This document shows positions 19,695 through 45,905 of a stretch of DNA of 64,000 bases, piece by piece. Below the pieces are notes generated by a model, which was not told the DNA's origin, searched no databases, and saw only the letters and a program-made list of their open reading frames with translations. The stretch's first letter is position 1. Each line of letters begins with the position of its first letter. Origin of the DNA: Psilocybe cubensis (Eukaryota); assembly GCA_017499595.2 (NCBI GenBank), contig CM039004.1, positions 2,046,001-2,110,000 on the forward strand, read 5' to 3'. A program made the translations under genes and the position numbers.

Positions 19695-20072
19695 GCGCCC
19701 TATGACGTGGCCAGCCTGTTCGTCCGCAATAGACAGGGTAGAGACAATCTTCTCAAGGGCGGCTTTGGTAGTAGTAGAGCGGATGGATTGGGAGTGCGGG
19801 GGCCCTGTAGTAGGAGTAGAGGTAGGTGCGGCCGGGCGTTCCTTCCTAGAGGTGTGTCGAGCGCGAGGTGCGCGAGCAGAGGGAGTGGGAGCGGCAGGCG
19901 GTTTGGGCAGGGAGGCCGTGAGGCGTTCAAGTTTAGACTCGATGGCAGACAGTTGGTCATCAACCTTTTTATCGGCATCGAACCTGACTTGCTGCGCCCT
20001 AAAGAGGAGGGCGAAACGGTCCTCGAGGGACATTGTCATGAACCCATTGTAAGGCGAAGGAGGGTCGGCCAT
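19695..20072 (-). pseudogene. N-terminal 126 codons of a KH-domain protein, cut by a Gypsy insertion
   Basis: MADPPS..., a predicted coiled-coil segment, a P/T-rich linker, then TLSIADEQAGHVIGR, which continues as AGTGLRQIHDISHAKISV at 45069. Confidence 0.9.
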
Positions 20073-20150
20073 AGAGTATAGTAGGTGGGGGCAAGGTAGA
20101 GTGGAGTAGACGAGCGCTGCAGTGGATAGAGTACCAGGGCAACGTTGGGT

Positions 20151-20161
20151 AGCTTCGATAT
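20151..20161 (-). promoter_or_regulatory. Putative self-priming PBS (ATATCGAAGCT) of the miniature element
   Basis: Lies 2 nt after the 5' LTR, does not start with TGG, and is the exact reverse complement of LTR positions 20225-20215, about 30-35 nt downstream of TATATA. Confidence 0.75.
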
Positions 20162-20440
20162 GCTGTTAGGAATCGACTTAAGTCAAGAGAGAAGAATGCC
20201 CAAAGACCAAGTTGATATCGAAGCTGGGGTCTGACTACTGACCCCAGGACCCTATATATACATGGAGACCGGAGTAACTACTTCCCGGACCAGAGTACTC
20301 GACATATGACAACTATCAATAGATGAAACAGGAGAACGATAGACGTGGGACCGAACACAAAGATAGAACAAGGCATAACAGCGTGGGACCGTAACAGATA
20401 ACGATAACGGATAGGGGTGGCACCAATACGTACCCTGACA

Positions 20441-20998
20441 ATAGTGTTGTCCTTATATACACCTAAGGTACGTTACATATGACTAGTGACAGTAACTATT
20501 GTATAGTTTTTAGTCATCTATCTAAATATAAAGTACTATTTGTAATCCACTCATATGACTTAGCACATGACTTGATAATCACATAGTCAAACATCACTGG
20601 CTTAACCAGTGTTGTCGTGGGTCAAATTGAACTGTGGCCAATGTTTCCCAATCAAATATGAACAAATACAAAACATGTGTGATTAAACTGTCCGCCAAGC
20701 CAGTGTGGGCCGCCCAAGGTGGCGCTTCTTAAGTGAATATAATTAACTACTTTAATAATAGTTGTTCAACACTCCTCAAGTGGTGTACGCACCGTAAGGC
20801 GGGACTCTACTTGTTTATAAATGGTCTAATCTAGTGGGTAAAACTCAAGGCCTAGAGTGGATCTATGTTTCAAGAATAGGTCAGGGCCTAGATTCTTAGT
20901 AAACATGTTGGCAACATTATTGGCAGTCAGAACTGCATATAACTTGATTGTGCTAAACTCTACTTGTTCCCGTATGTAATGATAACAAATATCCACAT
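20441..20998 (-). mobile_element. Degenerate Copia 3' end: RNase H tail, purine tract and most of the 3' LTR
   Basis: VDICYHYIREQV...NVANMFTK at 20998-20826; ttgaggag then TGTTGAAC at 20771; TATATAAG near 20459-20450. The LTR probably finishes at 45911-45968 (...AAGTAACA). Confidence 0.7.
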
Positions 20999-22636
20999 TA
21001 TCATACCCCAATCCTGATTGGAGATAAGATATTTAAATTGGATCTACACACAACGCCCTCAACCCAAGCAGTCATTCTTTTCATAAGTCATCCACTCATC
21101 TTATCTTATCAACACTTGTCACATGGGAGCCACATTATTCCGGATCACGTCATTCTGTCGGATCATCAAGGCTATGCGACGGATCAGTCAACCATCAAAC
21201 TGCACAGCACTCTGTACTGCCTTGCACAGCCGGACTGTCAACTCTATTTTTATCAATTCAATGGTCTTACTCAGCGTCAGGCTGCGGATTACTCATTCCA
21301 ACTTATTTTTGGTTTGTCTTACTCATTCTTTTGTGTTTATTTATATCTTTTCTATTGTCTGTTGCGCTTTTATTGTCTTTGTCTTACCAATCTTCTATGC
21401 TTTCTGACTCATCCTTGCTTCTTTTATCTAATCTGTATTACCATTCACCTTCGTCATACACTTCTTTCTTACTCATCCTATTCATTTCTTATCTGTCGTC
21501 GTGTCAATATTGACATGTCTTATTGTTCTTGCTTATTGTTACACTTGCGTAGCCTCATTCTTGACACTTTGTACAGTATATGACTCGGTTTTCAGTAGCT
21601 CAGATTGGTATTTCGTTCACGTAGCTTTTAGTATAAAAGCTGTAGTAGAATTACACGAAATGACAGGAAAGTTACACCCAGTCCCCACTTTCTTCAAAGC
21701 AAGTCAATTTTCATCCAAGTCAAGTCAATTTCAAGTCAATCCACATCGATTCATTTCAATTCCAAGTTCAAGTTCAAGCCAAGCCCAAACCCAAGTCCAA
21801 TTCAGTCATCAGTTCCACCCTCCGTCGAGACCAAGTTTACTTCCATTCATCCAAAGTCATCTTGCTTTCTATTGACAGAGGATTTTATCCAAGACCAGTT
21901 CTCCTTCTCCTCCAACGCCTCTTCTTCCCAGCGTTGAATATCCAACTTCTATCCAGACATCTAGTACTTCCCTACTTCCTCACCCCCATCCAATTCGTCA
22001 CTGCTCCTACTCCTTTTACATCTTCCAACCATCACCGTTAGGAGGGAATCCAAGACATTCTTCTCTCCGTCAACTCATCTGGAGTGATTTTATTTGAGAC
22101 AGACTTAGTCTTTCACCCTCAATCCAGTCAATACTCCCACGACGTATAGCTTCATTCCAAACATCAGAAAAATTGTCAATTTAAGGACACTTTCATCTTC
22201 ACCATCCGTTTACCAAGATTTGGCCATTCAATAACATTCCAACTTCCAGTCACCTTCTTATTTCCTTTCAAAACGTCTCCAATCCTCTTCAGACCACCCC
22301 TCTGAGGTTCACCTTTATTGATTTTTCCTATGCCTTCTACGCATCTTCATCACGCTTTCCCTATACACGTGCCATCCAATTTTACGGTTCTATTCCATTT
22401 TTTGAAGGTTTATTTACCATTGTACCCAGACAACCCGGCTATTCTCTTTTTACCATCTTGCTTTCTTTACCCTTCATAATCCACACCATCCTAATCTACT
22501 TAAATTCTAGGCAACGTCCTCCCTTAAGAAACTTAGGAGAAGGTTTCATCCTATCCAGTCTGGACTATTCTTTCCCTAGGGTTTGTGTTTGTTGGATTAC
22601 TTATAGTTTATAACCAATCACAAACTTCAATCTTCA
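20999..22636 (+). repeat. Solo Gypsy LTR (1638 bp), more diverged haplotype, no TSD
   Basis: TATCATACCCC...TCTTCA; flanks ACAT and CTGG differ; no internal domain adjacent. Confidence 0.92.
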
Positions 22637-26170: not shown

Positions 26171-27658
26171 TTTTTCAAAGTCTATATACTAGAAGGATCA
26201 GACCTCTACTCTAATTGTACTTAACATTATTATCTGTGCTTCTTTGTAAGATTGCCTAAAAATACCCCAATTAAGGCTTACCATCATATAGTCAAGCTTT
26301 ATTATTCTATCTTGAGTCTATTAATAGTGCTCATCTAATTGATTTTGTGGTTTTGAAAGCATTTCTGGTCTGTTTTCTTTAATTTTTTGTGATAAACCTA
26401 TATTATTAAGATGTCCAAGTTTGAATCAGCCATTAAAATTGCAATATCTATATTTATTCCTACACAATTAAACAAACAATATTCTAGCCAAAAGGCATAT
26501 CTTAAATAGCACCCTCCAGTGATTGGTGTAAACATTTCTAACCCTGCCATTATTTTTCATTTATAGTGAATAAAGGCCTTGCCAAGTTTCAGCCTATTTG
26601 AATCATTGGAACCTACTAAATTGTCATGCTCTGTACCCTGCCTCTACCACCACCGCCCTCTCTGGCTCCACAATGCATGTTGTGCTTTCTGCCTTAATGA
26701 TGCTGCAGCCCACCCAACATGCCCACAATATGCATGCCACTGTATGTTGTACTTTGTACTCTGCCTTCACTGGCATCTTCACTCTGTGTGTCATGCTCTC
26801 TACCCTAACAACAATACTAACACCCATTCTATCCACCCTAACAGCACTGCAGCCGCCCTTTTCCAACATGCAGTGCTATACATATTGTGTTTTTGTTCCC
26901 AATAATGCCGCAGCCCACCACAACATGTCTACAATATGTATGCTACTGCATATCGTGATCTCTGCCTGGACAATAATACCATTGCCTCCTTTCTGCCCAC
27001 CCCAACAGTGCTATAGCCATCCTCTCCTGACACGCTATCATACCCCAATCCTGATTGGAGATGAGATGTTCATTTTGGATCTACACACAACGCCCTCAAC
27101 CCAAGCAGTCATTCTTTCCATAAGTCATCCACACATCTTATCTTATCAACACTTGTCACATGGGAGCCACGTTATTCCGGATCATTTCACTTTGTCGGAT
27201 CATCAAGGCTATGCGACGGATCAGTCAACCATCAAACTGCACAGCTTTCTACACTGCCTTGCACAGCCGGACTGTCAACTCTATTTTTATCAATTCAATG
27301 GTCTTACTCAGCGTCAGGCTGCGGATTACTCATTCCAACTTATTTTTGGTTTGTCTTACTCATTCTTTTGTGTTTATTTATATCTTTTCTATTGTCTGTT
27401 GCACTTTTATTGTCTTTGTCTTACCAATCTTCTATGCTTTCTAACTCATCCTTGCTTCTTTTATCTAATCTGTATTACCATTCACCTTTGTCATACACTT
27501 CTTTCTTACTCATCCTATTCATTTCTTATCTGTTGTCGTGTCAATATTGACATGTCTTATTGTTCTTGCTTATTGTTACACTTGCGTAGCCTCATTCTTG
27601 ACACTTTGTACAGTATATGACTCGGTTTTCAGTAGCTCAGATTGGTATTTTGTTCACG

Positions 27659-27697
<39 letters not shown>

Positions 27698-27945
27698 TTT
27701 TGTGTTAGAGCCTCTGAGGGGGGGACCCCTCCCTTGGCTTGGTTCTACCTAACTACCTACTATGCTCCTTTAGCGTTGGTGGCTTTCCTTGGCCTACTTC
27801 TGCACTATGGAGGGCCCTCACGTCCCTCCACCTAGCCCAGTCGTCCTAGACTGTTTGAAGTAGCGCTTCCGGCCTGATAGGCTCTCTCCCTCTCATTCCT
27901 GGGTCTTGTATTGACTCTTTTGTTTTTTGTGTTGGGTCTTTGCCT

Positions 27946-30900
27946 TTAGTTACAGCTCTCCTCGTCTTCTTCCGTCCCTTTTCGTAGTAAATCCTCCTTG
28001 TAGGGTTTTAGTCGTTTAGTCTTCGCAATGTATCGTAGTAGCGCCTTAACGTGATCTTGTTTTGTCGTGAGTTCCTCTATGCTCGTGCATTGTTCGCCTA
28101 GCTCTTCCCAGAGTTCTCGCCTTTGCCTTCTGTACCTTTTGCATTCGAATATGAAGTGCTCAACCGTTTCTACTGCCTTCCGCCCGCCTCTCCTTTCATA
28201 GCACTTTGGGCAATATTCCGTCTGGTTTTTGGTGAACTTACTGAGGTGGCTGTTTAGTGGGATATGTCGTGTCCGCAGCTGTATCAGCACGCTAGCCTGG
28301 GTCCTGTTGAGTTTCTTGATGGCTCTTCTGTACCTGGTGAAGGGGAATTCGGTGTCTATTGACGCAAATGCTTGTTTCCGTTTCGACGAGTTCCAGCGGT
28401 CCCTCCAGATGGTCATCAATTCTTCTTGGTACGCTTGCTTCTCGGCAGACGCACTGCGCTTCATCGTTTGTTTTAGGGGGGTGGGTAGTTCATCATCGGG
28501 GGAGGAGTCTCCCTCAGCCGCTCGTTTCGCTTCTTCGTCCGCTCGTTCGTTCCCCAGTACATTGGAGTGTCCGGATATCCAGTGCAGCGTGATGTTTCCC
28601 TGCAAGGTGCGGAAAGCTGCGTCAATGTCCATCATAATACATTGTCCTGACTTAGCTTTGGGTTGTCTTAGATTCTGTAGTAGCGACTGATTGTCGCTGA
28701 ACACGTCAATCACGTTGCGATGCGTTGTCGCCTCGTTCTCGATGAGCTTGGAGGCCAGCAGGCCTCCTACAGCCTCCGCCTCGTAGGTGTTGTGGTCCTC
28801 GTTGGTGCCCAGATACTTACGCAGGACTTTCCCGTGTCTGTCTTGACGTGTTCTGAACAAAACGGCTGCCCCTCCGGTTCCCTGATTGTGGCTGGATCCG
28901 TCCGTGTATACCCTTATGTCCGCCTTACTTCCCTTTTCGTATTGCATCGAGTCTTCCCTGGAGTTCGCGATTACGATTTTGAAGGGTGGTCGGTAGTTAG
29001 CTGGGTATGGCAAGGGTAGTATCGTCTCGATGGTGCTTGGCTTAAAGTCGAAGATGCGCAGGAGGTTGTTGATCGGAGCTTTGTGTCGTTTTGCTGGTCG
29101 GGTTTCTGCCCTCGCAATCGCGCGATGCAGTGGGTGCGTACTTGGTAGTGTGGCCATCCGAACGAGGGCCCTGTGGCATGCTTTGAGCAGCGCCAGCTCC
29201 AGTGGGAGGACGCCCGCATGGGCGTCCAGCAGCTCCGTAGGAGTCGATCTCATCGCACCTGTAATGGTCAGCGTAGCCTTCCTTTGTATAGAGGTCATCC
29301 TCTTGAGTGCTGCTATTGATCCCACGTTGTTTTTGTACCCGATTGGCTTTGTCGGTGGTGTATACCAGACGTCTATCCCATAGGTGAGTCTCGGTAGGAC
29401 GGTTGCGATGTACAGCTGCCGGAGTAGGTAGGGGTGTATGCCCGTTGTGGGTTTTGCCAGTCGTCTGAAATTGTTGACACAGGCTGTTGCGCGTTCTGTG
29501 GCCCTCTGTAGGTGTGTCTTCCACTTCAGCTGACAGTCTAGGTGAAAACCTAGACATTTAAAGTCTCGGACCAGTGGTACTAGCTCTCCGTTAACTTCTA
29601 GTCGGGGGTGTTCGACGGAGTCGGGATTGCGAGGATCGAGATGCATCACCGCTTGCTTCGCTGGTGCGAATTTTGAGTTGTGACTATCGCTCCAAGTGAG
29701 AGCTCCGTTCTCCTTATGAATTAAGATACTCAGCTTGTCTGTGGTTTTGTCGAAGTCCTTCCCCGTTGCTACCAGAGTCACGTCGTCCACGTATCCGATG
29801 GCGTCTTCTCCGTTGCTGCGGTTGACTATCTCGAGAAGGTCAGCATTGTAGATGATATACAGAATCATCGACAACGGGTCGCCTTGGCCGATCCCGTTGT
29901 CTATCTTTATCAGCTCCGATACGAAGTCGTCAAACTTCAGCTTGGTCTTCCTGTCTCTGAGCAATTTGCGGATAAATTTGATGTAGACCTCCGGTATTCG
30001 ACGTTTTCTCAGATTGTGCAGAAGGCGGTCCGTCACAGCGTTTGGGAAGGCTCCCTCAACGTCGAGGAATAGCATTGAGACTACTCTGCCTTTTCTCCAG
30101 GCCGTCTTTACCTTGTCTGCCATGTAGTGCATGGCATCCGCCGTGGTGCGACCTGGCCTTCCTCCAAAGTGTGTGTTTGGGAGGAGGTTGTGCTCCTCCA
30201 CCAGGTGACTGATCCGTTCTGCAACTATGGCCGTGAGGACTTTGGGTAGCGTGTTCAGCAGGGCAATCGGCCTGTACGCTTTCGCTGTCTTGTAATCGGG
30301 CTTGCCTCGTTTTTTGAGCACGACCGTTATGGAGTGTTTCCACGGTTCTGGGTAGTGACCCGTCTTGAGAATTGCATTGTAAATTGAGTGTAGGCGGTTG
30401 ATTATGAGCGGCGTCGTTTTTTGGAGGACCACGTTGGGTATCTCGTCGATACCGCAGGCTTTGTATGGTGATAGGCGTTCCAGTTGTCGTTGAATTTGCT
30501 GGCGCGTTACATACCCACTGTCTTGTATCGCCTCCGGATATTTGTATCTCTGTGGCACCGAAGAGCAGTCTGGCTTCTTTGGGAAAAAGGTATGTGCAAA
30601 CAACTTAGCTTTTTCTTCGTTTGACGTTATGTCTTCCCTCTCGTCGTACTCGTTGGTTATCGTCAGCGAGGGTATTCTGGGTCTGCCCCCGTCGCCTATA
30701 GGCCTCTTGAAGTACCAATTTGCCGTCCATATGTCGGTGCCTTCGGCTTTGAGAAGCCATTCGCTCCAGTGGTTGCGTTTCATGTCCAGAACCAGTCTGG
30801 CAAAGACTCTTTTTGCGGCTTTGAATTCGAGGTGGCAGGGGTGATCTGGGAGTGCACGGAACCTGTGGTGCAGGCTACCCATCCTGTTTTTATACCTTTT

Positions 30901-31905
30901 TGCTTCCTCCACTTCGCTGGTCCACCATCACTTTGCCTCCGGGAGAGGTTTGCGTAGCTTGACCTCTTCCCCGATGGTGTCCTGCAAGGCTTTGGTCAGT
31001 AATAAAACTTCCCTGTCAATCTCTTGTCCTGTGTTAAGCACCAGCGTCCCGTCGGTGGTTGCTAGCCGTTTTTCTAGTGACTTGTTGAAACGCTCCCAGT
31101 TGGTTGTGCGGAAATTTCTTTCCAGAACAACTTCTGCAGTCTTGCATTTGGCATCGATTTCGATAGTGATAGGGTAGTGGTCGGTGTTCGCCGGGCGGTT
31201 TTTGTAGTCCACGTCGCACTTAACAACATGTTCGAGCAGCGCCTCTGAAAGAAAAACGTTATCTGGTCTCGACATCTTTTTTGTTACCATATGTTCCAGG
31301 GTCGGCAGGCCCTTTGGTAATGCCATAGACAGTCCGTGTTCTTCAACAAACTCGATTAACCGATCAGCTTTGGATAGTGCCTGAGGTGTGAATAGCCTGT
31401 CATCCTTGTCGCGGTCCCACATTGGGTGGTGCTGATTAAAGTCGCCCGCCCAGATCTGGTACGTGTTTGGCCCTCGCATTTGTCTTTGGTGGCCGTCCAG
31501 GTAATTCCGAAGCGGTTGAAGTGTCCTCCCGACGCGGCCTGGGTGGTAGATGTTGAAGATATAGATAGTCCCCCTCGCGCACTCGAGCTTTATTGCAGTG
31601 ATATCGTTCGACTCTGGGAGCGTCACCTCGCACCAATGGCTTGTGTTCAGTCGTTTGTTGACCCATATGCCTGATCTTGTGGTAGCTGCGCCTGCGCGCC
31701 CAACAGGGTATATAGGGCGGAAGTGGGCACTGGTTCTTATGTTTCCAAAGTGTGTGATGTGGGGTTCCTGAATGAGTACAATGTCGTACTCGTTACCCAG
31801 GTTTGCGTTTACTAGTTCGAGGTGCGCCACTTCGGATTTATTCAGGTTTATCTGCAGGATTTTTATTCGGTGGATATACTGCTCAGGATCACAATTTCTA
31901 CTCAC
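27946..31905 (-). pseudogene. LINE ORF2: AP endonuclease, reverse transcriptase, RNase H, C-terminal cysteine motif; one nonsense codon
   Basis: LIQEP, AGDFNQHH, TDHYPI; YRPIALL, FLDVEGAF, QGDPLS, YVDD; YTDGS, WISGH, GNERAD; C-x2-C...HFIFEC. A single TGA at 30930-30928 lies between two same-frame ORFs. Confidence 0.95.
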
Positions 31906-31908: not shown

Positions 31909-34003
31909 TTAGTCGTCGTCCTCTTCCCCTTGGCTTGCCCTCGACAGGTCCGCCTTGGATGAGCTGGGCTGCTGAGTAGTTTTGGGCTCCGGGCTTTGCT
32001 CGGGTGTCTTCAGCGTTGGCCCGCTCGATTTCGCGGGTGGTTCGACCGTCCAGCGTGGAGACTGACCCCTCGGCAGAGTCTTCTTCTGGAAAGTCGCCGG
32101 CGCTGCGCTAGTATCCATGCTCCATGTCCAAGGCTCATCTGTCGGGATGAATGGCAGCTTGTTCTCGGGTGTACGCTCGTCTTTTTCGGCTATCTTCTTG
32201 ATGAAGACTGGGCAGGCTCTGTCGTAGCTGGGGTGGTCATCGGCATTGCAAGACACGCAGTGGGTCTTCGTTTTCTCGCAGTCCGGTGTGCGATGGCCTC
32301 CCTTTTCGCCACAGTGGCCACAGACGTCGTGTTTTGAGGTGCATTCTTTTGCAAAGTGGTTGTAACCCTGGCATTTGAGACACCGGATAGGATCAGTTTT
32401 GCATTTCTGTACTCTCACCCTTTTGTTTGCCATGTACATGCCTATGGCTATCAGTCTGTTGGCCTCGCTGGCGTCGTTGACTGTGAGTATCACATGCGCG
32501 CTTTTCTGACCTACCGCTCGTCTCGATACTTTCTTGGCCCATCGCATCGAGACAATTGTGCCCTCGTCGACTCTGTTGGATTCTTCGACTTCCCTGAGGA
32601 AGTCCGCATCTGTCAGGGTTTCTCCAGTTTCCCCTCTTTATCTTCACAGAATTATCTTATCCTTTCATTATCTTATCAATTATCTGATTAGATAGTTTAT
32701 TTCTTTTATCACAGCCTTCTTGCTCCACTTTCTTCTAGTAAATTCTCTATGATTCCTAGTCTTACTCATCCTTTTTCTATATGATGTCACTTTTATTCTT
32801 TAACCTTCCTTTATGATGTAATGTAGGGAATATTCTAGAATAGCTGTAGAGTATAAATACTGGACTTGTAGGTAGCTGTAGCTTCAGCTTCAATCTCTTA
32901 GGATATCCACTATCATTGGTGTGATCTCTTAGAACCATTGAATCTCTCTCATTCTCTTATTCTCTCTTTGCTCTCTTACTCTCCCTCTGCTCTCTCTCTC
33001 TCTCTCTCTTGCTTAATCTTTGTTGGTGGCCTTGTCACACTGATTATAGTGTTGCCCTGACAGCATCTTTGGGTTCGGCAGTGATTGGGACACCCAGTGC
33101 TATCAACTCGTAAGTCCGTTTCTTTGTGGTGACATCGTCTCCGATGCGCTTGCACAAGTTGTTTCGGTTCTCTTCCACACGCATCCACGCGGCGCCAAAA
33201 TCCGAGTCGAATTCTATGAGGAGTCCCCCGTTTCTCTGCTTAATCGCTGACCTGATTCGTACAGAGCCCTCCGGTTCAAGCGACTGGAGTATTTTGTTGA
33301 CCGCGTCTTTCGCCTCTTTGTCGCCCATAGAGCTGATCTTTGCTTCTTTGTTTATACCTTCTAACATGGTCTGACGAGCTCGGATACCGTGACGCGCTAG
33401 CATCCTAGGGTTCGTAGCCATGTTAGCCTGTACCAAGATTTGGTTGACAATCGAGAGCCCCTTCGAGAGAGCTTGACTATACGAAGGTCCATTGCCTGAG
33501 GGTTGTTGCGGGGTCACTGCGCTAGCCGATTTGATTAGATTAGATGTCGCCTTGTTGATTTCGTCGAGTTTTTGGTCCACCTTGTCCTGCGCGTGCTGGA
33601 CCAGCGCTTTGATTTCGTTCGTGAAGGTTGCCAGTTCCTCTCCGAAGCCGTCGTGGTAAGTTTGGGTCGCCATTGGGATTTCCATGTCTTTGAGCATGAA
33701 GGCCAAGCCCCTCATAGCTTGGATCACGATGGGCGGGGTCTTATTCGACATCTGCGCAATCTGAAAAAGACACGCGGCGGCCCGGTGCGTCGTGAGGCCC
33801 TGTCCTGCTGGCACGAGCAGCTGGTGTTCCTCCAGGATTGCCCGTCCTCCCTTCGCGTTCTGGATCTGCTGAAGGTCTTCATTGACTACTGTTCCCTTGC
33901 TCCTGGTTGTTCTGTCGGCTGAGGCAGTGTCATTCTGACCCGGAGTGGGAGGGTTTCCCATGGCTGTCTTTTTGACACGCGCCGTGCCGGAATTGACGTT
34001 CAT
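31909..34003 (-). pseudogene. LINE ORF1 (gag-like, three CCHC-type knuckles), 545 aa after removing the inserted solo LTR
   Basis: Removing 32611-33062 and one GCATC restores ...TAEPKDADFLREVEESN...; CLKCQGYNHFAKEC, CGHCGEKGGHRTPDC, CVSCNADDHPSYDRAC. Confidence 0.92.
32611..33062 (+). mobile_element. 452 bp solo LTR inserted in LINE ORF1
   Basis: Termini TGTCAGGG...CCCTGACA, 5 bp TSD GCATC (32606-32610 and 33063-33067), TATAAA at about 32851, CT-rich 3' part. Confidence 0.9.
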
Positions 34004-35340
34004 TGACGAGATTAATGTGCGTGGGTGATTTTTTAGGTTGGTGGTGGGTTCAGGTACTTTTGGTACGTGTTTTTAGGTGGTTATTTACTCTACTCGATGG
34101 CTAATACGCCCGACAGACTGTTCCTTCACGCTCTAGGTGCGTGGGAAAAGTGCTGGAGGTGGTAGTTGCGGATCAAGGAGCGTCCTCCACGTAGCTTTTA
34201 GTATAAAAGCTGTAGTAGAATTACACGAAATGACAGGAAAGTTACACCCAGTCCCCACTTTCTTCAAAGCAAGTCAATTTTCATCCAAGTCAAGTCAATT
34301 TCAAGTCAATCCACATCGATTCATTTCAATTCCAAGTTCAAGTTCAAGCCAAGCCCAAACCCAAGTCCAATTCAGTCATTAGTTCCACCCTCCGTCGAGA
34401 CCAAGTTTACTTCCATTCATCCAAAGTCATCTCGCTTTCCATTAAGAGAGGATTTCATCTGAGACCAGTCATCCTTCTCATCCAACGCCTCCTCTTCTCA
34501 GCGTTGAATATCCAACTTCTATCCAGACCTCCAGTACTTCCCTACTTCCTCTCCTCCATTCAATCCGTCACCGCTCCTACTCCTTCTACACCTTCCAACC
34601 ATTGCCGTTAGGAGTGTATTCAAGACATCCTTTCCCTCCGTCAACTCATCTAGAGTGATTTCATTCGAGACAGACTTAGTCTTTCATCCTCGATTCAGTT
34701 GATACTCCTGCGACGTATAGCTTCATTCCAAGCTTCAGAAAGATTGTCAATTTAAGGACACTTTTGCCTTTACCATTCGCTTATCAAGATTCAGCCATTC
34801 AACGACATTCCAACTCCTAGTCATCTCCTCATCTCCCCTCGGAACGTTCCCCACTCACTTCAGACAACCCCTCTAAGATTCACATTTATTGATTTTTCAT
34901 ACGCATTCTACGTATCTTCTTCACGCATTCCATATACACCCGCCATCCAATTCCACGGTTCCATCCCATTTTCGGAAGGCTTATTTACTATCGTACCCAG
35001 ACTACCCGGTTATCCTCTTCTTACTATTTCGCTTTTGTTACCCTTCACAATCCACACTATCCTAATCTACTTAAATCCTAGGCAGCGTCCTCCCTTAAGA
35101 AACTTAGGAGAAGGTTTTGTCCTATCCAGTCTGGACTACTCTTTCCCTGGGGTTTGTGTTTGTTGGATTACATATAGTTTATAACCAATCACAAACTTCG
35201 ATCTTCATCTGGAGCCCACCGCGAGGGAGGGTTAATTAGGATTTTGTATTAGGAACACAGCAATCTACCACTTTATCACTTCCATTCCATCCATTTCGAC
35301 TCTTTTTCTTTACAGGTTATTTCGCTTTGCTGGTCTATTC

Positions 35341-35383
35341 TCTAGGCAACTCTAGGCAACTCTAGGCAACAATTCTAGGCAAC
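35341..35383 (+). repeat. Four copies of TCTAGGCAAC in the Gypsy leader
   Basis: tctaggcaac three times in tandem, aat, then a fourth; mirrored at about 17880-17922. Confidence 0.85.
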
Positions 35384-35412
35384 ACTTTCTGACTCTGTAA
35401 CTGGTTTACGCT

Positions 35413-38400
35413 ATGACTGATTCTGGCAATCCGTTTCCATCTTCTACTCCCACTATGGCTACTACCATCATCCAACGTACTCCTGTCGATATGCCTGTTC
35501 CTAAATCTAGTGCTCCTCCAAAATTCACTGGATCTTACGTCGACGTCAAGAACTTTTTGGATCACTGCGACCGCATTTTTGATCAGTACAATGTCACTCT
35601 CAACGATGACAAAGTACGATACATGGTTCAATGCTGCAACCAAGAGAGCAGAGAAATCATTGAAGGTTTACCCAGCCACCATGCCAAGCAATGGGAACGA
35701 CTCAAGACTGATATGCTCAAGATCTTTGACCATGCTAGGACAACGCAGAAGTTCACGTTGACTACTCTTCGTGCTTACGCTTTCCAACACTCCAATCTTT
35801 CTATGCATTCTCTTGATGACTTCCGCAAGTATCAGAAGCAATATATTCGCATTGCTGGTTGGCTTCTCAACAACAACAAGATATCCAAGACGGAATACAA
35901 TCAATACTTCTGGCTAGGAATCAATGAATCCCTCCGACCTGCGCTTGAAAGCAAGATCATGGTCTTTAATCCTCATATCGATCTCTCCTCACCTTTTTCC
36001 ATTGAAGACGTCACCAAGGCAGTTGAAATCATCTTTAAACGAGACCGCTTTGACGTTGGAATCTTTGACAATCCTTCTGCATGTTCTTTCACGTCTCTTA
36101 TTCCCCCAAAGGATTTGTATCCTGAACGTTCATCAGTCTTTGACAAGATCAAGAAGTACTTACAGGAGATGTTTCCTAACATCAAGACATGCGATGCTTG
36201 TGAACGTCCATACAATCCCCCGGAAGAGACCAAGCGCATCTTTCAGGATCTAGACAAGGAAGAAAAGCAAGCACACAAGGACGACAAAGTGAAGAACTTG
36301 ATCAAGCAGATGTTGAAGCTCACCATCCATGATTCTTCGTACACTATTTACTATCTTTGCGCCATCAAGTTGGAACCCGCTCTTGCTAACATGCTCATTG
36401 CTCCGGCCATTATAAATCCAAGTGCACAGCCAGCTCAGCCAGTCCCAATCGCAAGTCAGACAGCACCTCCAGCACCACGAGCACCACGTCAGTCCGCATC
36501 CGAGATCATCTGCTATGGTTGACATCAACAAGGCCATGGAATCAACAACTGCCCAACGCTCATTGATCTTACGAACCGCAAGCTCATTTCCAGAGACAGT
36601 AGCAATCGAGTTGTCTTTCCTGATGGATCCCGCATTATTCGCCAGAATGGAGAGTCAATCGCACAAGCAGTCCTTCGTCAACAACAGCCTCCTCCTCCTC
36701 CTCAAGTCGCTACCACAAGCATAGCCGTATCCGAAGCATATTATGGTCAGATGTTCAAGAACTACAGAGCCATGGTCGCAGAAGAAGAAGAGGACGACAT
36801 TGGAACCTGGGATGGAGAAGACGAGTTTGAGTTTACGCTGGCAGGTCCTGGTAATCGAATCCCAACTGAAAAGCGAACACGTGCTGCACGCAAACAGGTC
36901 ATGGACGCTGTGGTACCTCCGGAACCCGCGTATCTCAAAGGAAAGCGAGCGGAAATAAGTAAAGCTAAGGATTCTTCTCAGATCCCATCTATTCTTAAAC
37001 GTCCGGCTAACTCTGGATTGCCGAACAATGTGCCTAGCTCCACTTCCATTCAACCTGTCCCAATCCCGTCAATTAATCAACCTTCTGCCGAAATGAATCC
37101 ATCAATTCCTGTCAAACAAGCTCAACCCAATGTTCCGATTAGGGCAAATCCAACGGAACATCCCGAGACTGCGCAACGATACGAGGTTTTTGATCCGGCC
37201 GATGATGATCAAATCATGGAAGATGTCACTCCTAGTCTAGAACGAGGCAAATCAGTTACCAAGCCACACGCAGCGCCTCAGAAACGTGTCTCTGACATAT
37301 CCCAAACTGTCAACACTATGGCCATTCTCAGACGATGCCTTAATCAACCCGTTAATGCGACGTTCGGCGAGTTACTTGGAGTTTCAAAGAACCTTAGGAC
37401 CCTTCTTATCAACAGTATCAAAGGCAAGACCCTTACTGTCGACGAATTCAAAGCTTCATTGACAAACGGCAACTTAAAGCTTTCTGATAAGGAAGTTCTA
37501 GACATCATTTGCAGTGCCGAAAAGGACGTACCTGTTCAATACATGCACGAGACCAATTCAGTTGAATCCCTTCGTGCTCACGAGCCCCTTCTTCGAATCA
37601 CATTAATGTGTAATGGTCACGAACTCAATGCCTTGATTGACAGTGGATCTACGCAGAACATTCTAAGCGAACAGGCTTGGAAGAAGATTGTCAGGTTGCC
37701 GATGGACAGCCGGAATACTATTGTTATGGTTGATATTCATGGCGGCAAATCCCACATGCTTGGATTCGTTGGAAATGTTCAACTTGATATTGGTACAGTC
37801 AGGACGCGTGCTCATTGCTATGTATCCAACAAAGTCCAGTTTGATATACTCTTGGGACATCCATGGACCCGTGACAACTATGTGGACATTCTAGAACGAC
37901 CCGAAGGGACCTTCATTGCCTTCTATGACGTCAAAGATCCTACACGTGAGCAGAAATTCCTTGTGACACCTGATACTCAGCACGACCGGCGTTACTTCAC
38001 GGATACCATTTACGACAAGACTCCCCAAACAATGTTAGCACACAACGACCTCTCCTTAGCTAATCCAGATGCCGAAGAAGGTGAAATTGAAGAAGATTTA
38101 GAACCCGGTGAATTATTGGACGACCTTCGCTATCCATCACCTACCCCTTCCATGATCGAGTTATCTATCCTTACTAGGCAACAATCTCTGAATTGGGACG
38201 AATCTGCTAACCCAAATGAGGACTTATCCACTTCACAAGATGCACCCTCTTTTTCTGACTCCAACTGCAAACATGACTCGACTCAGGACTCCTCTCACGG
38301 TCTTTACGCTTCCGATTATGACTCAATGTATCAAGATGACTCGGGAACTTCTCAATTCAATGCAACAGCCCATTATGGTCATATTTCCACACCACCTTAC

Positions 38401-38853
38401 GATTCCACACATGAGGCCCCACAAATAGAACAGCCACCATCACCATCTGTCAATCCGTCCATCAAATCCCATACTTCAGACAATAACGACCCACATGAAG
38501 AAGAACCAGCTGACGACAATCCAGAAATGGAACAATTGAGCTTACCTGAAGTAGAAGCTATTCAATTCTCTTCTGACAATACTCATCTTACGGCTATGGG
38601 AATGCTCAACCCCCACTTGCGTTTTGAAGACTGGATTCTATATGACGCCACCTATTCTTCTCCTACTCGTGTTGTTTCTGACCGAACAGGAACGGCCTTT
38701 GTCTATTATGTTTATCCGCAGAGAAACAGCCATATAAACTTGACGACAACTCCAACTATTCTACACTTCAGTCGCACTGGTATCTCGTCTCAATCTAACC
38801 ACTCTGCTTCAGTCAGTGCCTATCCAATGGGCCAACGTCACTCAGCATCCTAG
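35413..38853 (+). pseudogene. gag: Gypsy gag plus aspartic protease and acidic extension, copy 2
   Basis: ORFs 35413-36522 and 36751-38853 share a frame across TGA 36520-36522; ALIDSGS protease motif; TAG 38851 is TGG in copy 1. Confidence 0.9.
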
Positions 38854-39305
38854 ACTCATTTTATTCCCCAATCTATTTGCTCTCAAACGCTTCTTCTATT
38901 CCCCAACCTCATTCCCAAAGTTCTGCTCTTCCATAGACACCTCTTTCGATTATGATTCACCAAGAAATACATGTATCATCGACGGTCACCACAAATGTAG
39001 ACGAGCATCATCGAGGCCCAAAAGCTTTGGTACATTCTCTGCGAGTAGCCCACAACAGTCCAAAGGAGCCATTAAACAAGGATGAAGAAGAGCTATGAAT
39101 CACCCAAAATGGCAAAGAGGTCGACCACAATTCTTCCCTTTTACCTCTTCCCATAACCAGCACAATGCACAAATCGCGAGCTTCAAATATGGATGATGGA
39201 AACGAATGGTACTATCAGTATGGAGAAGAAAGTCCCTTTGGTATCGACAACACGGAAGAACATCTCTTGGACGCCAACACATTGTACTGACTATCTGGAC
39301 GGTGC

Positions 39306-42300
39306 ATGGACATCAGCTTGCTTCCTCAACGCCCTCTCTTTGTTCTCCGATCCCCTCAATTTTTCTTTGTCACCTTTGCTGTTGCTGGTGTTTCTTCTTC
39401 CTCATCGTTATGCCTTTATCCCACCTCCCATTTTATTTCCACATTTTGTGTTTCTCTTTTCCATTTCACGGACACTTATGTAGATTTTTCATTTGTGCAA
39501 CGAGTTCTTGAACACCTCCACTTTTCTTTTATGCGCCTTTTACTCACATTCACACTCTCAATGGCAACTCCACGCCATACAACCTTTTCCTTTACCTTTT
39601 ATTTTCATTTTCTTTCCACTTTATCTATTTGTATGTACGTCGACCGAAAAGTCGTTAAACTAACCTTTATTTATTCCTTCCTTTTATTTATTTGTTCCAT
39701 CCCCGCTTCACCACTTCAGTCCGCAACCAAATCCTCAGGTCACCTATTGCAGAGTTCTTGGAGAAACACACGCAACCTCCCAAAGGAATGCTATACGGAA
39801 TCTCTATCTCCAATATACACCACTATCATGCCTCCAATACACCTCGAACTTCTACAGAATCGGGAAGGGCTTCATCTTATCCACAAAGAGCGAAAAATCA
39901 AGCTTACGGACAAGATAAGAAGGACGACCACTCCATTACCTCTGATGGGTCAAGACCTACAGAAATTTCGGATAGATCAAAGCATTTATGCAAGATCATG
40001 GTCACTCAATTCAGATATTACTGCTAAACCCACCGTCAACCAAACTAATTTGGCAAGGTCGTCAAGCTCTCCTACAATTGGTTTTGTATTCACTGCCGCG
40101 TCAGGATCGACACTATCAACCTTTCGAGCCTCCATGAATCAATTCATATCACCTATTCTTTCCCCCTCTTCTGCCAATACAGCCTATAAACGAGTCGATC
40201 GGAAAGTTAGACCTATAAATTGGGTTACTCCAGAATTGGCCAAAGTTATACGACGAATTCCTGTTGATCCCTTATTATCTCTCCCACCTCTCCCACTCCA
40301 TCCCCCTACCTTTACACCAACGACCAGACTCACTCTTGAACGCATACAATCAATAAACATTAACGCCAACAAATTCCTATGGCCGGAAGAAGAAAAGCTT
40401 TTCCTTCATATTCTTAAACTCAATGAACGCTCACTCGCTTTTCATCAGTCCGAACGTGGAACATTTTCTGAAGAATACTTCTCTCCATACATCTTTCATG
40501 TTGAGGATCACGAGCCCTGGGTAGTCCGAAATATTCCTATTCCACCCGGCATCATGGATCAAGTTATCAGTCTCTTACGTGAAAAGATAGATGCTGGAGT
40601 ATACGAACCAAGCCAAGCTCCGTATCACTCTCCAATTTTCTGGGTCAAGAAGAAGACAACTGGTGCTATCCGTCTAGTTCATGATCTGCAGATTCTTAAC
40701 TCTATTTCCTATCGCGACGCAGGAGTTCCTCCAGTTCTTGACAACTTTGTGGTTCCCTTTGCTGGTCATTCTATTTATACGGTCTTTGACTTATATTGGG
40801 GATATGACGCACGCAAAATCCATCCTATGAGCCGAGATCTTACCACGTTCCAGTCTCTTATTGGACCTCTTCGACTTACTTCAATGCCTATGGGATATAC
40901 AAATGCAGTAGCGGAATTTCAAGCCTGTACCACCTTCATCCTTCGTGACGAGATCCCTCATGTAGCCAATGTCTTTATCGACGATGTTCCTATCAAAGGC
41001 CCTCCAACACAGTACTTAGACGAGGACGGCAATCCAGAAACACTTCCAGAAAATCCAGAAATACGACGATTTGTCTGGGAACACGCTCAAGATGTTCATC
41101 GAGTTATGCACCGCATGGGATGTGCTGGTGCTACATTTTCTGGACCAAAGACTCAGCTTGCTCAGCCTGAAGTTCTTATCCTTGGACAGTTATGCACTCC
41201 GGATGGACGACTACCCGATCAGAGCAAGATACAGAAAGTCACTGATTGGCCATGACCAAAGTCTGTTCACAACATCCGATCCTTTCTAGGTCTATGCGGA
41301 ACAATGCGTGTTTGGATCAGAAATTACTCAGCCCTTGTCCGACCACTCACAGAACTCTATCGTAAGGACGAACCCTTTGTCTGGACCCAACAACAAGAAG
41401 ACTCTTTCCAAACTCTCAAAGAAATCATTTCCAATCCTCCTGTTCTCACTTCTATTGACTATTCATCCGATCGCCCAGTTATTCTTGCTGTGGACACTTC
41501 TCACATTGCTATTGGTATCATTCTCTATCAACTTGACAAAGAAGGCATCCGACGACCTGTCCGCTATGGTTCTATCTCACTTAATCCACAAGAAGCACGA
41601 TACAGTCAGCCCAAGCTCGAGTTATATGGTCTTTTCCGTGCTCTTCGAGAATTCCGCCTCTATCTTATTGGAGTCAAGAACCTCTACGTTGAAGTCAACG
41701 CCAAGTACATCAAAGGCATGCTCAATCAGCCTGACTTGCAGCCTAGTGCTAGTATGAATCAATGGATACAAGGCATTCTTCTCTTTGACTTCAAGCTCAT
41801 CTATGTAAAGGCCAGTAATCATCGTGGACCTGATGGACTTTCAAGGCGACAACCAACTTCTGAAGAGTTAGAGGAACCTCAAAAAGACGATGACTGGCTT
41901 GACGATATTGCTCTTCTTAATACGGTCAAATTTTTCCCTACTTTTCTTTTTACTCCCTCTTCTATGCCATCGTATGACTCTATCTTGCTTCCTTCTTTTA
42001 TTGCTTCTTCTTCTTCTCAAGAACGGACACTTCGACAAATTCTTCAATTTCTTACAGACCAAACTATACCCCCTTTTCCCAATTTGCAGTCCCGACAACG
42101 ATTCCTTGCTCGCGCTACTCAGTACTATCTCAAAGATGATCAACTCTATTGATGACGACAAGGAAGACCTCCACTCTTGGTTATTCTAGATCCAGACAAG
42201 CGACGTCTCATTCTTACTCAAGCTCATGAAGAACTCGGACATCGAGGAATATACGGTGTGTTTGGAGTTATTTGCATTCGGTTTTTCTGGCCATTTCTTT

Positions 42301-43376
42301 TTCAGGATATCAAGCATTATCTCGCTACTTGCCATGAATGTCAGATCAGATCCACCAAGAAAAGCAAAGTTCCTATCACTATCACAGCTCCCCCAACTAT
42401 CTTCACTATCATCAATGTTGACGTCATGTACATGCCCAAATCTGGACGCTTCCGATACGTAGTCCTAGCCCGAGACGACTTATCACGTGCACCTGAAGGA
42501 CGTGCCCTCAAGTCTTTACGTTCCGAAGAGCTGGCCACTTTCTTTTGGGAAGAAGTCATATGCCGATATGGTGCTATTGCTATTGTACGCACGGACAATG
42601 GAGTAGAAGTCTCTGGCGCTTTCAGTCTTTTGATGGAAAAGTACGGCATTCCTCAAGTTCGCATTTCTCCTTACAACTCTAAAGCCAATGGATCTATTGA
42701 ACGTGGTCACATTGACTTCCGTGAATCCATTCTCAAAGCTTGCGGCGACCGACCTCTAGACTGGCCACAGTACATTCATCACACACTCTTCTCTGACAAA
42801 TGCATCACTCAACGCTCTACTGGACATTCCCCTTTCTACGTCATGCATGGTGTTCATCCTGTTCTTCCATTTGATCTCCTTGAAGCCACATTTCTAGTTG
42901 ATGGATTCCGACAAGGAATGAGTTCCGAAGATCTCCTAGCTCTCCGTGTTTGACAACTCATGAAACGAGATGAAGACTTAGCCAACATAGCCGACGTTCT
43001 GAAACAATCACGACTTCAATCCAAAGCTACTTTTGAACGACAATTTGCTCGACGTCTTCGACAAGAAAGCTTCAAGTTTGGTGATCTAGTCCTCGTCAGG
43101 AACAGTCAAGTTGAGAAGAAGATGAATCGCAAGCATAAGCCACGATACCTTGGACCTTACGAAGTTGTACGACAGACACGAGGAGGATTATATGTGCTTA
43201 GAGAACTTAATGGTACGCAACTGGCTCAAGGCGTAGCTGCTTTCCGACTTCTTTGCTATTTTCCACAAGACGGTTCAGTCATTCCTCGACCTCAGCTAGA
43301 CCGGATGATCAGAGAACTTGGACATGAGAGTCAGGAAGATAAAGACACATGGAGCGACAACATGGACGACTTCTAA
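39306..43376 (+). pseudogene. pol: Gypsy pol (RT, RNase H, integrase), copy 2
   Basis: Same-frame pieces split by TGA at 41253, 42150, 42153 and 42951. Recognisable pol sequence starts near AYKRVDRKV (about 40180). No chromodomain after the GPY motif. Confidence 0.92.
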
Positions 43377-43435
43377 TCTATTCCCCCCCTTCCTTCCGCA
43401 ACCGGGGACGGTTGATTTCTCAAGTTTGGGACGGA

Positions 43436-45064
43436 TATCATACCCCAATCCTAATTGGAGATGAGATGTTCATTTTGGATCTACACACGACGCCCTCAAC
43501 CCAAGCAGTCATTCTTTCCATAAGTCATCCACACATCTTATCTTATCAACACTTGTCACATAGGAGCCACGTTATTCCGGATCATGTTACTTTGTCGGAT
43601 CATCAAGGCTATGCAACGGATCAGTCAACCATCAAACTGCACAGCTTTCTACACTGCCTTGCACAGCCGGACTGTCAACTCTATTTTTATCAATTCAATG
43701 GTCTTACTCAGCGTCAGGCTGCGGATTACTCATTCCAACTTATTTTTGGTTTGTCTTACTCATTCTTTTGTGTTTATTTATATCTTTTCTATTGTCTGTT
43801 GCGCTTTTATTGTCTTTGTCTTACCAATCTTCTATGCTTTCTGACTCATCCTTGCTTCTTTTATCTAATCTGTATTACCATTCACCTTCGTCATACACTT
43901 CTTTCTTACTCATCCTATTCATTTCTTATCTGTCGTCGTGTCAATATTGACATGTCTTATTGTTCTTGCTTATTGTTACACTTGTGTAGCCTCATTCTTG
44001 ACACTTTGTACAGTATATGACTCGGTTTTCAGTAGCTCAGATTGGTATTTCGTTCACGTAGCTTTTAGTATAAAAGCTGTAGTAGAATTACACGAAATGA
44101 CAGGAAAGTTACACCCAGTCCCCACTTTCTTCAAAGCAAGTCAATTTTCATTCAAGTCAAGTCAATTTCAAGTCAATCCACATTGATTCATTTCAATTCC
44201 AAGTTCAAGTTCAAGCCAAGCCCAAACCCAAGTCCAATTCAGTCATCAGTTCCACCCTCCGTGGAGACCAAGTTTACTTCCATTCATCCAAAGTCATCTC
44301 GCTTTCCATTAAGAGAGGATTTCATCTGAGACCAGTCATCCTTCTCATCCAACGCCTCTTCTTCTCAGCGTTGAATATCCAACTTCTATCCAGACCTCCA
44401 GTACTTCCCTACTTCCTCTCCTCCATTCAATCCGTCACTGCTCCTACTTCTTCTACACCTTCCAACCATTGCCGTTAGGAGTGTATTCAAGACATCCTTT
44501 CCCTCCGTCAACTCATCTGGAGTGATTTCATTCGAGACAGACTTAGTCTTTCATCCTCGATTCAGTCAATACTCCTGCGACGTATAGCTTCATTCCAAGC
44601 TTCAGAAAGATTGTCAATTTAAAGACACTTTCACCATTCTCCAAGATTCAGCCCGTTAACGACATTCCAACCCCTAGTCATCTTCTCATCTCCCCTCGGA
44701 ACGTTCCCCACTCACTTCAGACAACCCCTCTAAGATTCACATTTATTAATTTCTCATACGCATTCTACGCATCTTCTTCACGCTTTCCATATACACCCGC
44801 CATCCAATTCTACGGTTCCATCCCATTTTCGGAAGGCTTATTTACTATCGTACCCAGACGACCCGGTTATCCTCTTCTTACTATTTCGCTTTTGTTACCC
44901 TTCACAATCCACACTATCCTAATCTACTTAAATCCTAGGCAGCGTCCTCCCTTAAGAAACTTAGGAGAAGGTTTTGTCCTATCCAGTCTGGACTACTCTT
45001 TCCCTGGGGTTTGTGTTTGTTGGATTACATATAGTTTATAACCAATCACAAACTTCGATCTTCA
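43436..45064 (+). repeat. 3' LTR of Gypsy copy 2 (1629 bp)
   Basis: Preceded by gggacgga; TATCA...CTTCA; followed by GCGC. Confidence 0.95.
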
Positions 45065-45905
45065 GCGCGCGGGAACTGGCTTACGCCAAATCCACGACAT
45101 CTCGCATGCAAAGATCTCGGTCTCCCCCATCGTCACCTCCGGTTTGCATGCCGTCACTATCAGGGGCACTGCTCGTGAAGTCGGTGATGCTCTCTCTGCT
45201 ATCGGCAAGCGGATTGCCCATCGTTGCATCCGCAACCCTAGGTCCAAGAAGCCTAAACAGCCTCCTGCGCCCACTGCCGCCCCTCCTACCCTCGTCGTTG
45301 AACCTCCTTCTTCTACTCCAACCTCGAGCTCTACCCCAACTACGCGGACACCCCGTTCCGGGACGGCTTCTCCGCACTTGCCCATTCCTACGGCTGTCGA
45401 CACTCGCTCCAGCCCATCCTCGTCGTTCGCCCCTGGTTTGCCTATGGAGGTGGACGCTCTTAGGGCTCCGCAGCAACACTCTGACGGTTACTCTCGCCCC
45501 GGGCCTGTTCAGCCTAGGGAGGGAATTCAGACCGCGCGTCGTGGCGGTGGACCGCCTTGTGTCTTTGGTGCAAACCGTCCACGGTGAAGACCAGGCCGTT
45601 GGGACACCGACCTTTAGAGGGGAGGTGATGTCAGGGTACGTATTGGTGCCACCTCTATCCGTTATTGTTATCTGTTACGGTCCCACGCTGTCATGCCTTG
45701 TTCTATCTTTGTGTTTGGTCCCACGTCTATCGTTCTCCTGTTTCATCCATTGATAGTTGTCATATGTCGAGTACTCTGGTCCGGGAAGTAGTTACTCTGG
45801 TCTCCATGTATATATAGGGTCCTGGGGTCAGTAGTCAGACCCCAGCTTTGATATCAACTTGGTCTTTGGGCATTCTTCTCTCTTGACTTAAGTCGATTCC
45901 TAACA
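45065..45905 (+). mobile_element. 3' half of the miniature KH-encoding LTR element
   Basis: GCGC target duplication, ORF remainder 45069-45587, PPT agaggggaggtga 45616-45628, 277 bp LTR 45629-45905, then ACTAT 45906-45910. Confidence 0.92.
45069..45587 (+). pseudogene. C-terminal 172 aa of the KH-domain protein
   Basis: AGTGLRQIHDISHAKISVSPIVTSGLHAVTIRGTAREVGDALSAI completes a type I KH pattern; then a basic patch, a P/S/T tract, PMEVD (45441-45455) and an R/G tail. Confidence 0.9.

Follow-up and report, generated by a model that had tools for sequence, protein, structure and literature searches.

How is a long terminal repeat (LTR) retroelement copied when it encodes neither a capsid protein nor any of the enzymes of reverse transcription and integration, and when its only gene specifies a protein with a KH domain? 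The question is raised by a locus of the mushroom Psilocybe cubensis (contig CM039004.1 of assembly GCA_017499595.2, positions 2,046,001 to 2,110,000), a transposon-rich stretch of 64,000 nt that was analysed as a whole and is called the window below. Two pieces of it, 20440-19695 on the minus strand and 45069-45905 on the plus strand, rejoin to a miniature LTR element of 1583 nt, the mini element. We interpret it, with moderate confidence, as a dead member of a family of self-priming, non-autonomous LTR elements in mushroom-forming fungi, in which a putatively RNA-binding KH protein, comparable to ORF1p of LINE-1, takes the place of gag-pol. The signals needed in cis for reverse transcription and integration are all kept and the enzymes are all missing, which argues that copying takes place in trans. 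The first-pass annotation of this DNA, made from the sequence alone, had already proposed a non-autonomous LTR retroelement with a KH protein as its sole gene. This view is confirmed; the element is multi-copy, with 11 intact copies in P. cubensis, and relatives share its layout.

The rejoined element is bounded by two LTRs of 277 nt, which are identical at 270 of 277 positions, with every one of the seven differences a C/T transition. Both copies start with TGTCAGG and end with CCTAACA (TG...CA), and a perfect 5 bp target-site duplication (TSD) is present at both outer ends. The internal region measures 1029 nt and thus leaves no room for pol. A single open reading frame (ORF) of 298 codons runs across the join, with 126 codons in the 5' half (from the ATG at 20072 to 19695) and 172 in the 3' half (45069 to 45584), followed by a TGA stop at 45585-45587. 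The features of the mini element are as follows.

20441-20445, minus strand: left TSD, ACTAT, matching 45906-45910.
20164-20440, minus strand: 5' LTR, 277 nt, TGTCAGG...CCTAACA, identical to the 3' LTR at 270 of 277 positions.
20253-20260, minus strand: TATA box TATATATA in the 5' LTR, at LTR position 181, 35 nt upstream of the self-primer arm.
20215-20225, minus strand: 5' arm of the putative self-primer, AGCTTCGATAT, the predicted 5' end of the transcript.
20151-20161, minus strand: putative self-priming primer-binding site (PBS), ATATCGAAGCT, 2 nt past the 5' LTR, a perfect 11 nt complement of 20225-20215.
20073-20150, minus strand: C-rich, G-poor leader (C 44%, G 12%), a candidate target of the KH protein.
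19695-20072, minus strand: ORF codons 1-126, with the predicted coiled-coil helix (residues 16-52), a P/T/S linker, the first KH strand and the start of the GRAG loop.
45069-45587, plus strand: ORF codons 127-298 and stop, with the rest of the KH domain (to residue 181, nt 45233), a basic patch, a P/S/T tail, PMEVD and QTARRGGG.
45616-45628, plus strand: polypurine tract (PPT), AGAGGGGAGGTGA, abutting the 3' LTR.
45629-45905, plus strand: 3' LTR, 277 nt.
45906-45910, plus strand: right TSD, ACTAT, matching the left TSD.

With a TG...CA pair of LTRs, a TSD in the 4-6 bp range, a PBS, a PPT and multiple dispersed copies, the mini element has the structure of an LTR retrotransposon. It is non-autonomous in that its ORF lacks protease (PR), reverse transcriptase (RT), RNase H and integrase (IN), KH_1 being the sole family match. 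The rejoined 1583 bp, the LTRs, the TSD, the PPT and the 298 aa ORF had all been put forward by the first-pass annotation, and they are upheld by the coordinates, by a read contig and by an intact paralogue. The joining of the two halves is confirmed independently in three ways: a contig of read set X1 continues to the left of 45065 directly into the precise end of the 5' half; intact paralogues of 298 aa span the join, P0004 among them at 94-95% identity; and a GCGC repeat, described below, marks the break. The C-terminal half of the window ORF is 100% identical to part of a P. cubensis protein. The junction between PPT and LTR start, G[GA]TGA followed by TGTYA, is found again in the metagenome loci L005, L008, L010, L012, L013 and L015.

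Eleven nucleotides that begin 2 nt past the 5' LTR (ATATCGAAGCT) are perfectly complementary to a segment within the LTR itself (AGCTTCGATAT), which lies 35 nt downstream of the TATA box TATATATA; a complement of 11 nt is reached by 2 of 2000 shuffled sequences. Complements of at least 10 nt (arms of 10-13 nt) are present in nine of the ten elements tested, each matched by at most 8 of 2000 shuffles, and in the tenth (L006) the LTR is cut by the contig end. The distance from TATA box to arm is 33-35 nt in all six elements, of the ten tested, that have a TATA[TA]A match. The arm sequences vary among elements yet remain complementary. Applied to six sequences, RNAalifold predicts 14 pairs, seven of them with pair-keeping changes on both sides and none with a one-sided change, and the minimum free energy fold of the predicted RNA 5' end pairs that end with the PBS (z = -2.6). 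The candidate PBS of the first-pass annotation is retained as a PBS on the strength of the 11 nt complement and the covariation; these sequence patterns identify it as a predicted self-priming site of the Tf1 kind, not a tRNA site. Judged by the TATA spacing alone, the 5' arm would be the true start of the transcript. Self-priming has been demonstrated for Tf1 and proposed for Tj1, according to PMC4600332. The leader that separates the PBS from the ATG is C-rich and G-poor in all seven elements compared (C 35-47%, G 8-15%). C-rich sequence is what KH domains of the poly(C) type, such as those in PCBP and hnRNP K, bind, and the composition of the leader would fit binding of this type.

The KH domain is recognised in the intact paralogue P0004 by KH_1 with 35.7 bits, against a gathering cut-off of 21.5, and 18 of 20 family members match; the C-terminal half in the window scores 12.8 bits by itself, below the cut-off, because the insertion splits the domain. 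The nearest solved relatives of the family profile are the third KH domains of PCBP1 (E 4e-6), PCBP2 (E 7e-6) and hnRNP K. An AlphaFold2 model built from a 20-sequence family alignment predicts a b-a-a-b-b-a KH fold at residues 109-181, with a block-mean predicted local distance difference test (pLDDT) value of 87-92 over 111-170 and lower values at the edges. The modelled strands are at 109-116, 141-149 and 152-159, the helices at 117-124, 126-138 and 161-181, and the GxxG loop is present as GRAG (residues 125-128) between KH helices 1 and 2. The top Foldseek match is PCBP2 KH3 (target template modelling score 0.89, root mean square deviation 1.4 A, 32% identity). The model also contains a 37-residue helix with a heptad pattern at 16-52, and the stretches outside this helix and the KH domain have largely a pLDDT <50. 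When three copies of residues 1-60 are modelled together, they form an in-register bundle with a score of 0.67, compared with 0.02 for the best control, a run agreement of at least 88% and a partner pLDDT of at least 80. Among proteins whose solved structure is a pair of one chain, 21 of 30 reach the mark for this score, compared with 0 of 23 among those solved as single chains. The bundle model supports oligomerisation, with no particular chain number. A conserved basic patch, RRRIRNPRSKKPK, which we take to resemble a nuclear localisation signal, directly follows the KH domain, and two conserved motifs, PM(E/D/Q)(V/I)D and QTARRG, are found near the C-terminus. On the basis of these models, the protein most likely has a coiled coil at its N-terminus, a single type I KH domain resembling that of PCBP, and disordered tails of basic character. 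The type I KH domain with its GxxG loop and the coiled-coil-like N-terminus, both initially read from the sequence, are borne out by the KH_1 score of P0004, the modelled KH fold and its Foldseek match, and by the heptad-patterned helix and its bundle model.

At E<=0.01, no Gag, PR, RT or IN family match was obtained in any of the 20 family members, in agreement with the initial observation that no capsid, knuckle, protease, RT or integrase is recognisable. The model of the ORF product, one long helix and the KH domain, contains no capsid fold and no zinc knuckle. The ORF is not a Gag, as the ORF of a member of the Gag-only class would be. The further suggestion of the first-pass annotation, that the element had kept Gag-like ends, is not supported: besides the missing Gag match and capsid fold, no longer or fused protein was found that shares the whole protein or its tail (residues 225-298), in a search that counts as weak evidence, and the PMxxD motif is absent from the gypsy and copia gag ORFs. 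In the six-frame translation of the window, PM[EDQH][IVLM][DG] has only two occurrences, one in the KH ORF and one in a stretch at position 67 that is broken by a stop. As to the source of the KH domain, no donor gene was identifiable among the multi-KH matches behind the family, which include a dinoflagellate transcript and unassigned contigs, and in the protein atlas basidiomycete KH clusters came up only as leads below the threshold (scores 0.84 and 0.79).

A protein of this architecture could also act as an antagonist, sequestering the RNA of a helper, or binding small or single-stranded RNAs against host silencing, so that the element would be a satellite interfering with its helper or its host. 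An oligomeric RNA binder with basic tails fits this role equally well, and the conservation of the KH domain between lineages, documented below, shows that the protein matters to the element lineage, not how. Nothing specific indicates silencing, however, and pure interference gives a non-autonomous element no obvious copying gain unless its own RNA is favoured; moreover, the C-rich leader beside the PBS in seven of seven elements fits self-recognition. We regard an antagonist as unlikely. The two functions suggested by the first-pass annotation, interference and the loading of the element's RNA into helper particles, are both hypothetical.

The element family is multi-copy and spread across Agaricomycetes. 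In P. cubensis, the cluster at 90% identity has 14 members, among them 11 distinct intact proteins of 298 aa, on contigs of seven different lengths, and the paralogue P0005 reads on into sequence recognised by eye as translated LTR. In reads of two other isolates, the internal part of the element has ~7-15x the depth of the adjacent low-copy flank and the LTR is ~4x deeper again, which implies solo LTRs; the consensus of loose read ends past the LTR is the element's own PBS and leader. Cluster count and read depth dispose of the possibility, considered at the outset, that the element is a single copy. Relatives were found in four other named Agaricomycetes, Agrocybe pediades, Psilocybe cf. subviscida, Dendrothele bispora and Sphaerobolus stellatus, and in mushroom genomes their ORFs are annotated as hypothetical or KH domain-containing proteins. 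A profile search of 1.84 billion representatives produced 593 matches at E<=1e-3 and 152 at E<=1e-10; the best of these are mostly single-KH proteins of ~250-360 aa, and most members looked up lie on contigs of 1.3-1.7 kb. Sixteen metagenome loci were fetched for a comparison of layout. Direct repeats flank the ORF in eight of them, at a spacing of 1254-1612 nt; four of the eight are contigs with identical ends, as expected from assembly collapse of identical LTRs, and the other four have flanks and LTR pairs that are 82-99% identical. Three more loci carry partial LTR signatures (an LTR end followed by a second PBS in L003, the junction of PPT and LTR start in L013 and L015), and another three are truncated. 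A TSD for L012 was rejected, as the two sides read CAAAT and TCAAG. Three proteins from outside the window (P0113, P0117 and P0143, 759-781 aa), encoded on contigs of 3-6.5 kb, share the N-terminal helix, the KH domain and the basic patch (GKRIA..R.PNPR), and have in addition a disordered tail of some 400 aa and a conserved C-terminal segment; Pfam finds KH_1 only, and they may belong to a larger sister element.

These layouts bear on the proposal that the mini form is a deletion derivative of an autonomous Ty3/gypsy element whose first ORF is the KH protein, that is, a gag-only derivative of the BARE-2 or TR-GAG kind. Separate gag and pol ORFs would escape the searches for longer proteins, whose evidence is weak to that extent, and the 759-781 aa proteins have the same layout of coil, KH domain and basic patch on longer contigs. 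Against this stand the LTR spacing of 1.25-1.6 kb in all eight measurable loci and the finding of no pol-like ORF, with ORFs of at least 90 aa considered, beside the KH ORF in eight loci (L004 and L010-L016); a copia RT-like fragment, judged by eye, lies upstream in L014. In P. cubensis, read depth is even from the KH region past the stop codon to the PPT, and no loose end falls between the ORF and the 3' LTR among the best-supported ones (a further 217 exist). The long KH proteins themselves are without an RT, PR or IN family. A deletion derivative is, on these grounds, decidedly unlikely.

Selection on the ORF was estimated by the Nei-Gojobori method for 12 ORFs (66 pairs), most pairs being saturated at synonymous sites. 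Within the KH domain (81 codons), the proportion of nonsynonymous differences (pN) is far below that of synonymous ones (pS) in the four closest independent pairs, which have the following values.

L007-L008: KH pN 0.039, KH pS 0.230.
L009-L004: KH pN 0.000, KH pS 0.411.
L010-L011: KH pN 0.086, KH pS 0.449.
L001-L003: KH pN 0.108, KH pS 0.504.

For the remainder of the protein, these pairs have a pN/pS of ~0.56-0.66. Between lineages, then, strong purifying selection acts on the KH domain; the expectation that the ORF is under selection holds to this extent, and it fails among the P. cubensis copies, which decay neutrally. Neutral decay inside a genome would also be found if the KH ORF were a passenger, a fragment of a host PCBP-like gene that was transduced by an LTR element and plays no role for it. 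The KH domain is closest to the cellular KH3 of PCBP and hnRNP K, and a host origin of the domain is therefore likely. The ORF is linked, however, to LTRs, self-primer and PPT across lineages (named species, many clusters at 50% identity, element-sized contigs), and its KH pN is far below pS between lineages, a state in which passengers are not kept, so that we hold a passenger to be very unlikely. That the copies form a host gene family lying between repeats, or domesticated with an LTR promoter and no longer mobile, is exceedingly improbable: annotators have named them as ordinary hypothetical or KH-domain proteins, but a perfect 5 bp TSD, a PPT, a covarying PBS, 11 near-identical intact copies on contigs of seven different lengths, an LTR depth above the internal depth and the position of the window copy inside nested transposons all speak for a mobile element.

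Several points weigh against the interpretation that we prefer, a self-priming LTR family with a KH protein in place of gag-pol. RNA binding and cis preference are ascribed to the KH protein by analogy. The bundle mark, which was calibrated with two copies (dimers), holds only roughly for a trimer that was modelled without an alignment. Two metagenome loci, L004 and L011, are long enough for an LTR pair and none is seen in them. In the 11 intact P. cubensis copies, the KH domain is not poorer in variable sites than the whole protein (13 of 81 positions, compared with 43 of 298), which indicates that inserted copies decay neutrally; selection on the replicating lineage would produce such a pattern, and the copies may no longer be active. 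Finally, no helper was found, the gypsy and copia elements of the window sharing neither LTR ends nor PBS with the mini element.

For the self-priming KH family we envisage the following cycle. Transcription would begin ~35 nt downstream of the LTR's TATA box. The initial 10-13 nt of the transcript would then pair back with the PBS and serve as primer for reverse transcription, in the manner of Tf1. The oligomeric KH protein would bind the element's own C-rich RNA, probably in cis during translation, and would then serve as a substitute for Gag or nucleocapsid, analogous to LINE-1 ORF1p. The resulting ribonucleoprotein would be copied and integrated by RT/RNase H and IN from a putative self-priming Ty3/gypsy helper that recognises the TGTCAGG...CCTAACA ends. 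Since self-priming needs an RT/RNase H able to cut an RNA duplex, the helper should itself be a self-priming Ty3/gypsy element. More tentatively, one can imagine an ancient Agaricomycete LTR lineage without capsid or enzymes, with a self-priming RNA of 1.3-1.9 kb, whose coiled-coil KH protein, its only product, coats this C-rich RNA in cis and hands it over to the RT and IN of an unrelated self-priming Ty3/gypsy element; we consider this extended scenario possible, though doubtful.

The window itself was searched for such a partner. Neither blastn of the LTR nor motif scans of the window found anything beyond the element's own two LTRs and chance matches of 13-25 nt, and tblastn of P0004 against the window returned the two halves only. 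An autonomous partner with the same LTR ends and PBS, whose discovery the first-pass annotation had called for, is thus absent from the window. The Ty3/gypsy element that interrupts the mini element was considered as a helper and is ruled out by its tRNA-type PBS and different LTR ends. In the one RNA run examined, a single contig matched, on a neighbouring repeat only, which gives no RNA evidence for the mini element. The first-pass annotation knew of no description of such an element, and a literature search, the scope of which ended short of Repbase, supplements and subscription journals, likewise found no KH-encoding LTR element; nor did a look for the relevant terms in PMC10799480 and PMC3411680 turn one up.

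The two halves of the mini element are separated by copies of this Ty3/gypsy element, with the following coordinates.

45065-45068, plus strand: GCGC target duplication of the interrupting Ty3/gypsy element, repeating 19695-19698 (minus strand), the last four bases of the 5' half.
8241-19694, minus strand: Ty3/gypsy copy A, LTRs of ~1.6 kb with the left one truncated, abutting the 5' half.
27036-45064, plus strand: Ty3/gypsy copy B, inverted, with a LINE-like insertion (27667-34182) in its 5' LTR, abutting the 3' half.

Copies A and B form a 10.3 kb inverted repeat (99% over 10317 nt); their Pfam matches are to RNase H, aspartyl protease and DUF4100. Copy A is missing ~51 terminal nucleotides of its left LTR, and the PBS of copy B is of the tRNA type (TGGAGCCCACC). 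The history of the locus would have begun when an 11 kb Ty3/gypsy element inserted into the KH domain and duplicated its 4 bp target, GCGC; a second gypsy copy in inverted orientation would then have recombined with the first and flipped the segment between them, parting the halves by 25 kb on opposite strands. The arrangement of the 25 kb segment reflects either such an inversion or a misassembly through the 10 kb repeats, which would look alike, and under either history the mini element is broken by a transposon insertion. The window copy was most likely inactivated by this 11 kb insertion within the KH domain together with C>T/G>A decay. Fifteen of its residues depart from the consensus of the intact copies, and many of these changes are R>H, R>C or R>Q; in 45069-45905 the window has T/A where most reads of X14 and X15 have C/G at 18 of the 23 variant places listed; the C>T/G>A and R>H/R>C changes suggest CpG deamination or a process resembling repeat-induced point mutation acting on a dead copy.

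A protein annotated at the locus, P0002 (264 aa), joins an SH3 segment from the Tf2-type integrase of the interrupting element to the C-terminal half of the KH ORF; the chimera is an artefact of gene modelling across the nested insertion. At 20999-22636 lies a solo LTR of the interrupting gypsy family (93-95% identical), flanked by CACAT and CTGGG, with no matching TSD. The LINE-like element at 27667-34182 carries minus-strand ORFs for endonuclease, RVT_1 and RNase H in a region with a GC content of ~0.51 and a strong AT skew, and two inverted copia elements at 49647-62223 (Retrotran_gag_2, rve, RVT_2) are 99% alike over 4.3 kb. The mini element is nested in yet another repeat, a 77 nt stretch next to it (45922-45998) having a depth of ~700, compared with ~22 in the low-copy flank beyond. 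In the left flank (20441-20470), GTGTATATAAGG ends ~12 nt before the insertion point, and the insertion target may, from this motif, be the promoter region of another LTR. Elsewhere in the window, two tandem-repeat arrays at 5340-5729 and 6543-7442, with periods of 18-21 nt and 36 nt, are located in GC-rich sequence where long ORFs of both strands overlap.

The known strategies of non-autonomous LTR elements are either to be non-coding (TRIM, LARD) or to keep Gag (TR-GAG, BARE-2). If our interpretation is true, a cellular-type RNA-binding domain under selection, combined with a covarying self-primer, would be a third way to parasitise retrotransposon machinery. In the extended scenario, the family would be a hyperparasite of retrotransposons that codes for a protein, a kind without earlier description, and its protein the LTR counterpart of LINE ORF1p. 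The family would also offer a compact, testable system (~1.3 kb of unique sequence, one ORF) for the choice of RNA in reverse transcription without an own capsid protein. On the practical side, the ORFs of these elements currently pass as ordinary host genes in mushroom annotations.

BARE-2 is a gag-only non-autonomous LTR retrotransposon of plants. Like the mini element, TR-GAG and BARE-2 are short LTR elements with a PBS, a PPT, one ORF and no pol, which need RT and IN in trans; they differ in that their ORF is Gag and their hosts are plants, whereas the mini element has a fungal host and encodes a KH protein with no Gag match, capsid fold or zinc knuckle. TRIM, LARD and SMART elements resemble it in size class (1.3-1.9 kb), terminal repeats and dependence on a helper, but have no conserved coding capacity, while the mini-element family keeps an ORF under purifying selection. 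Non-coding, non-autonomous LARD elements are reported from Laccaria in PMC3411680. With Tf1, Tf2 and Tj1, of the Tf1/sushi group, the mini element shares a PBS right after the 5' LTR that can pair with the start of the RNA made from the same element, as predicted here. The members of that group are autonomous and encode Gag-PR-RT-IN, and the mini element has none of these, which makes its placement by RT phylogeny impossible. The self-primer of Tf1 is said to be 11 nt long.

Two further comparisons concern the protein. PCBP1/2 and hnRNP K supply, with their KH3, the best sequence and structure matches of the element's KH domain, the GxxG loop of which is present as GRAG; these proteins have three KH domains and no coiled coil, unlike the element protein with its one KH domain, carried by a mobile element. 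LINE-1 ORF1p, according to PMC3258132, is a coiled-coil-mediated trimer with nucleic-acid binding and chaperone activity. It is like the KH protein in being encoded by a retroelement, in its N-terminal coiled-coil oligomer, single RNA-binding domain and basic tail, and in the role that is proposed here for the KH protein; it differs in that its domain is an RRM and its element is a non-LTR element with its own ORF2p, whereas the mini element has a KH domain, LTRs and no polymerase. The likeness is one of analogy, not homology, and the KH protein would, if our interpretation is true, be a convergent parallel to LINE-1 ORF1p.

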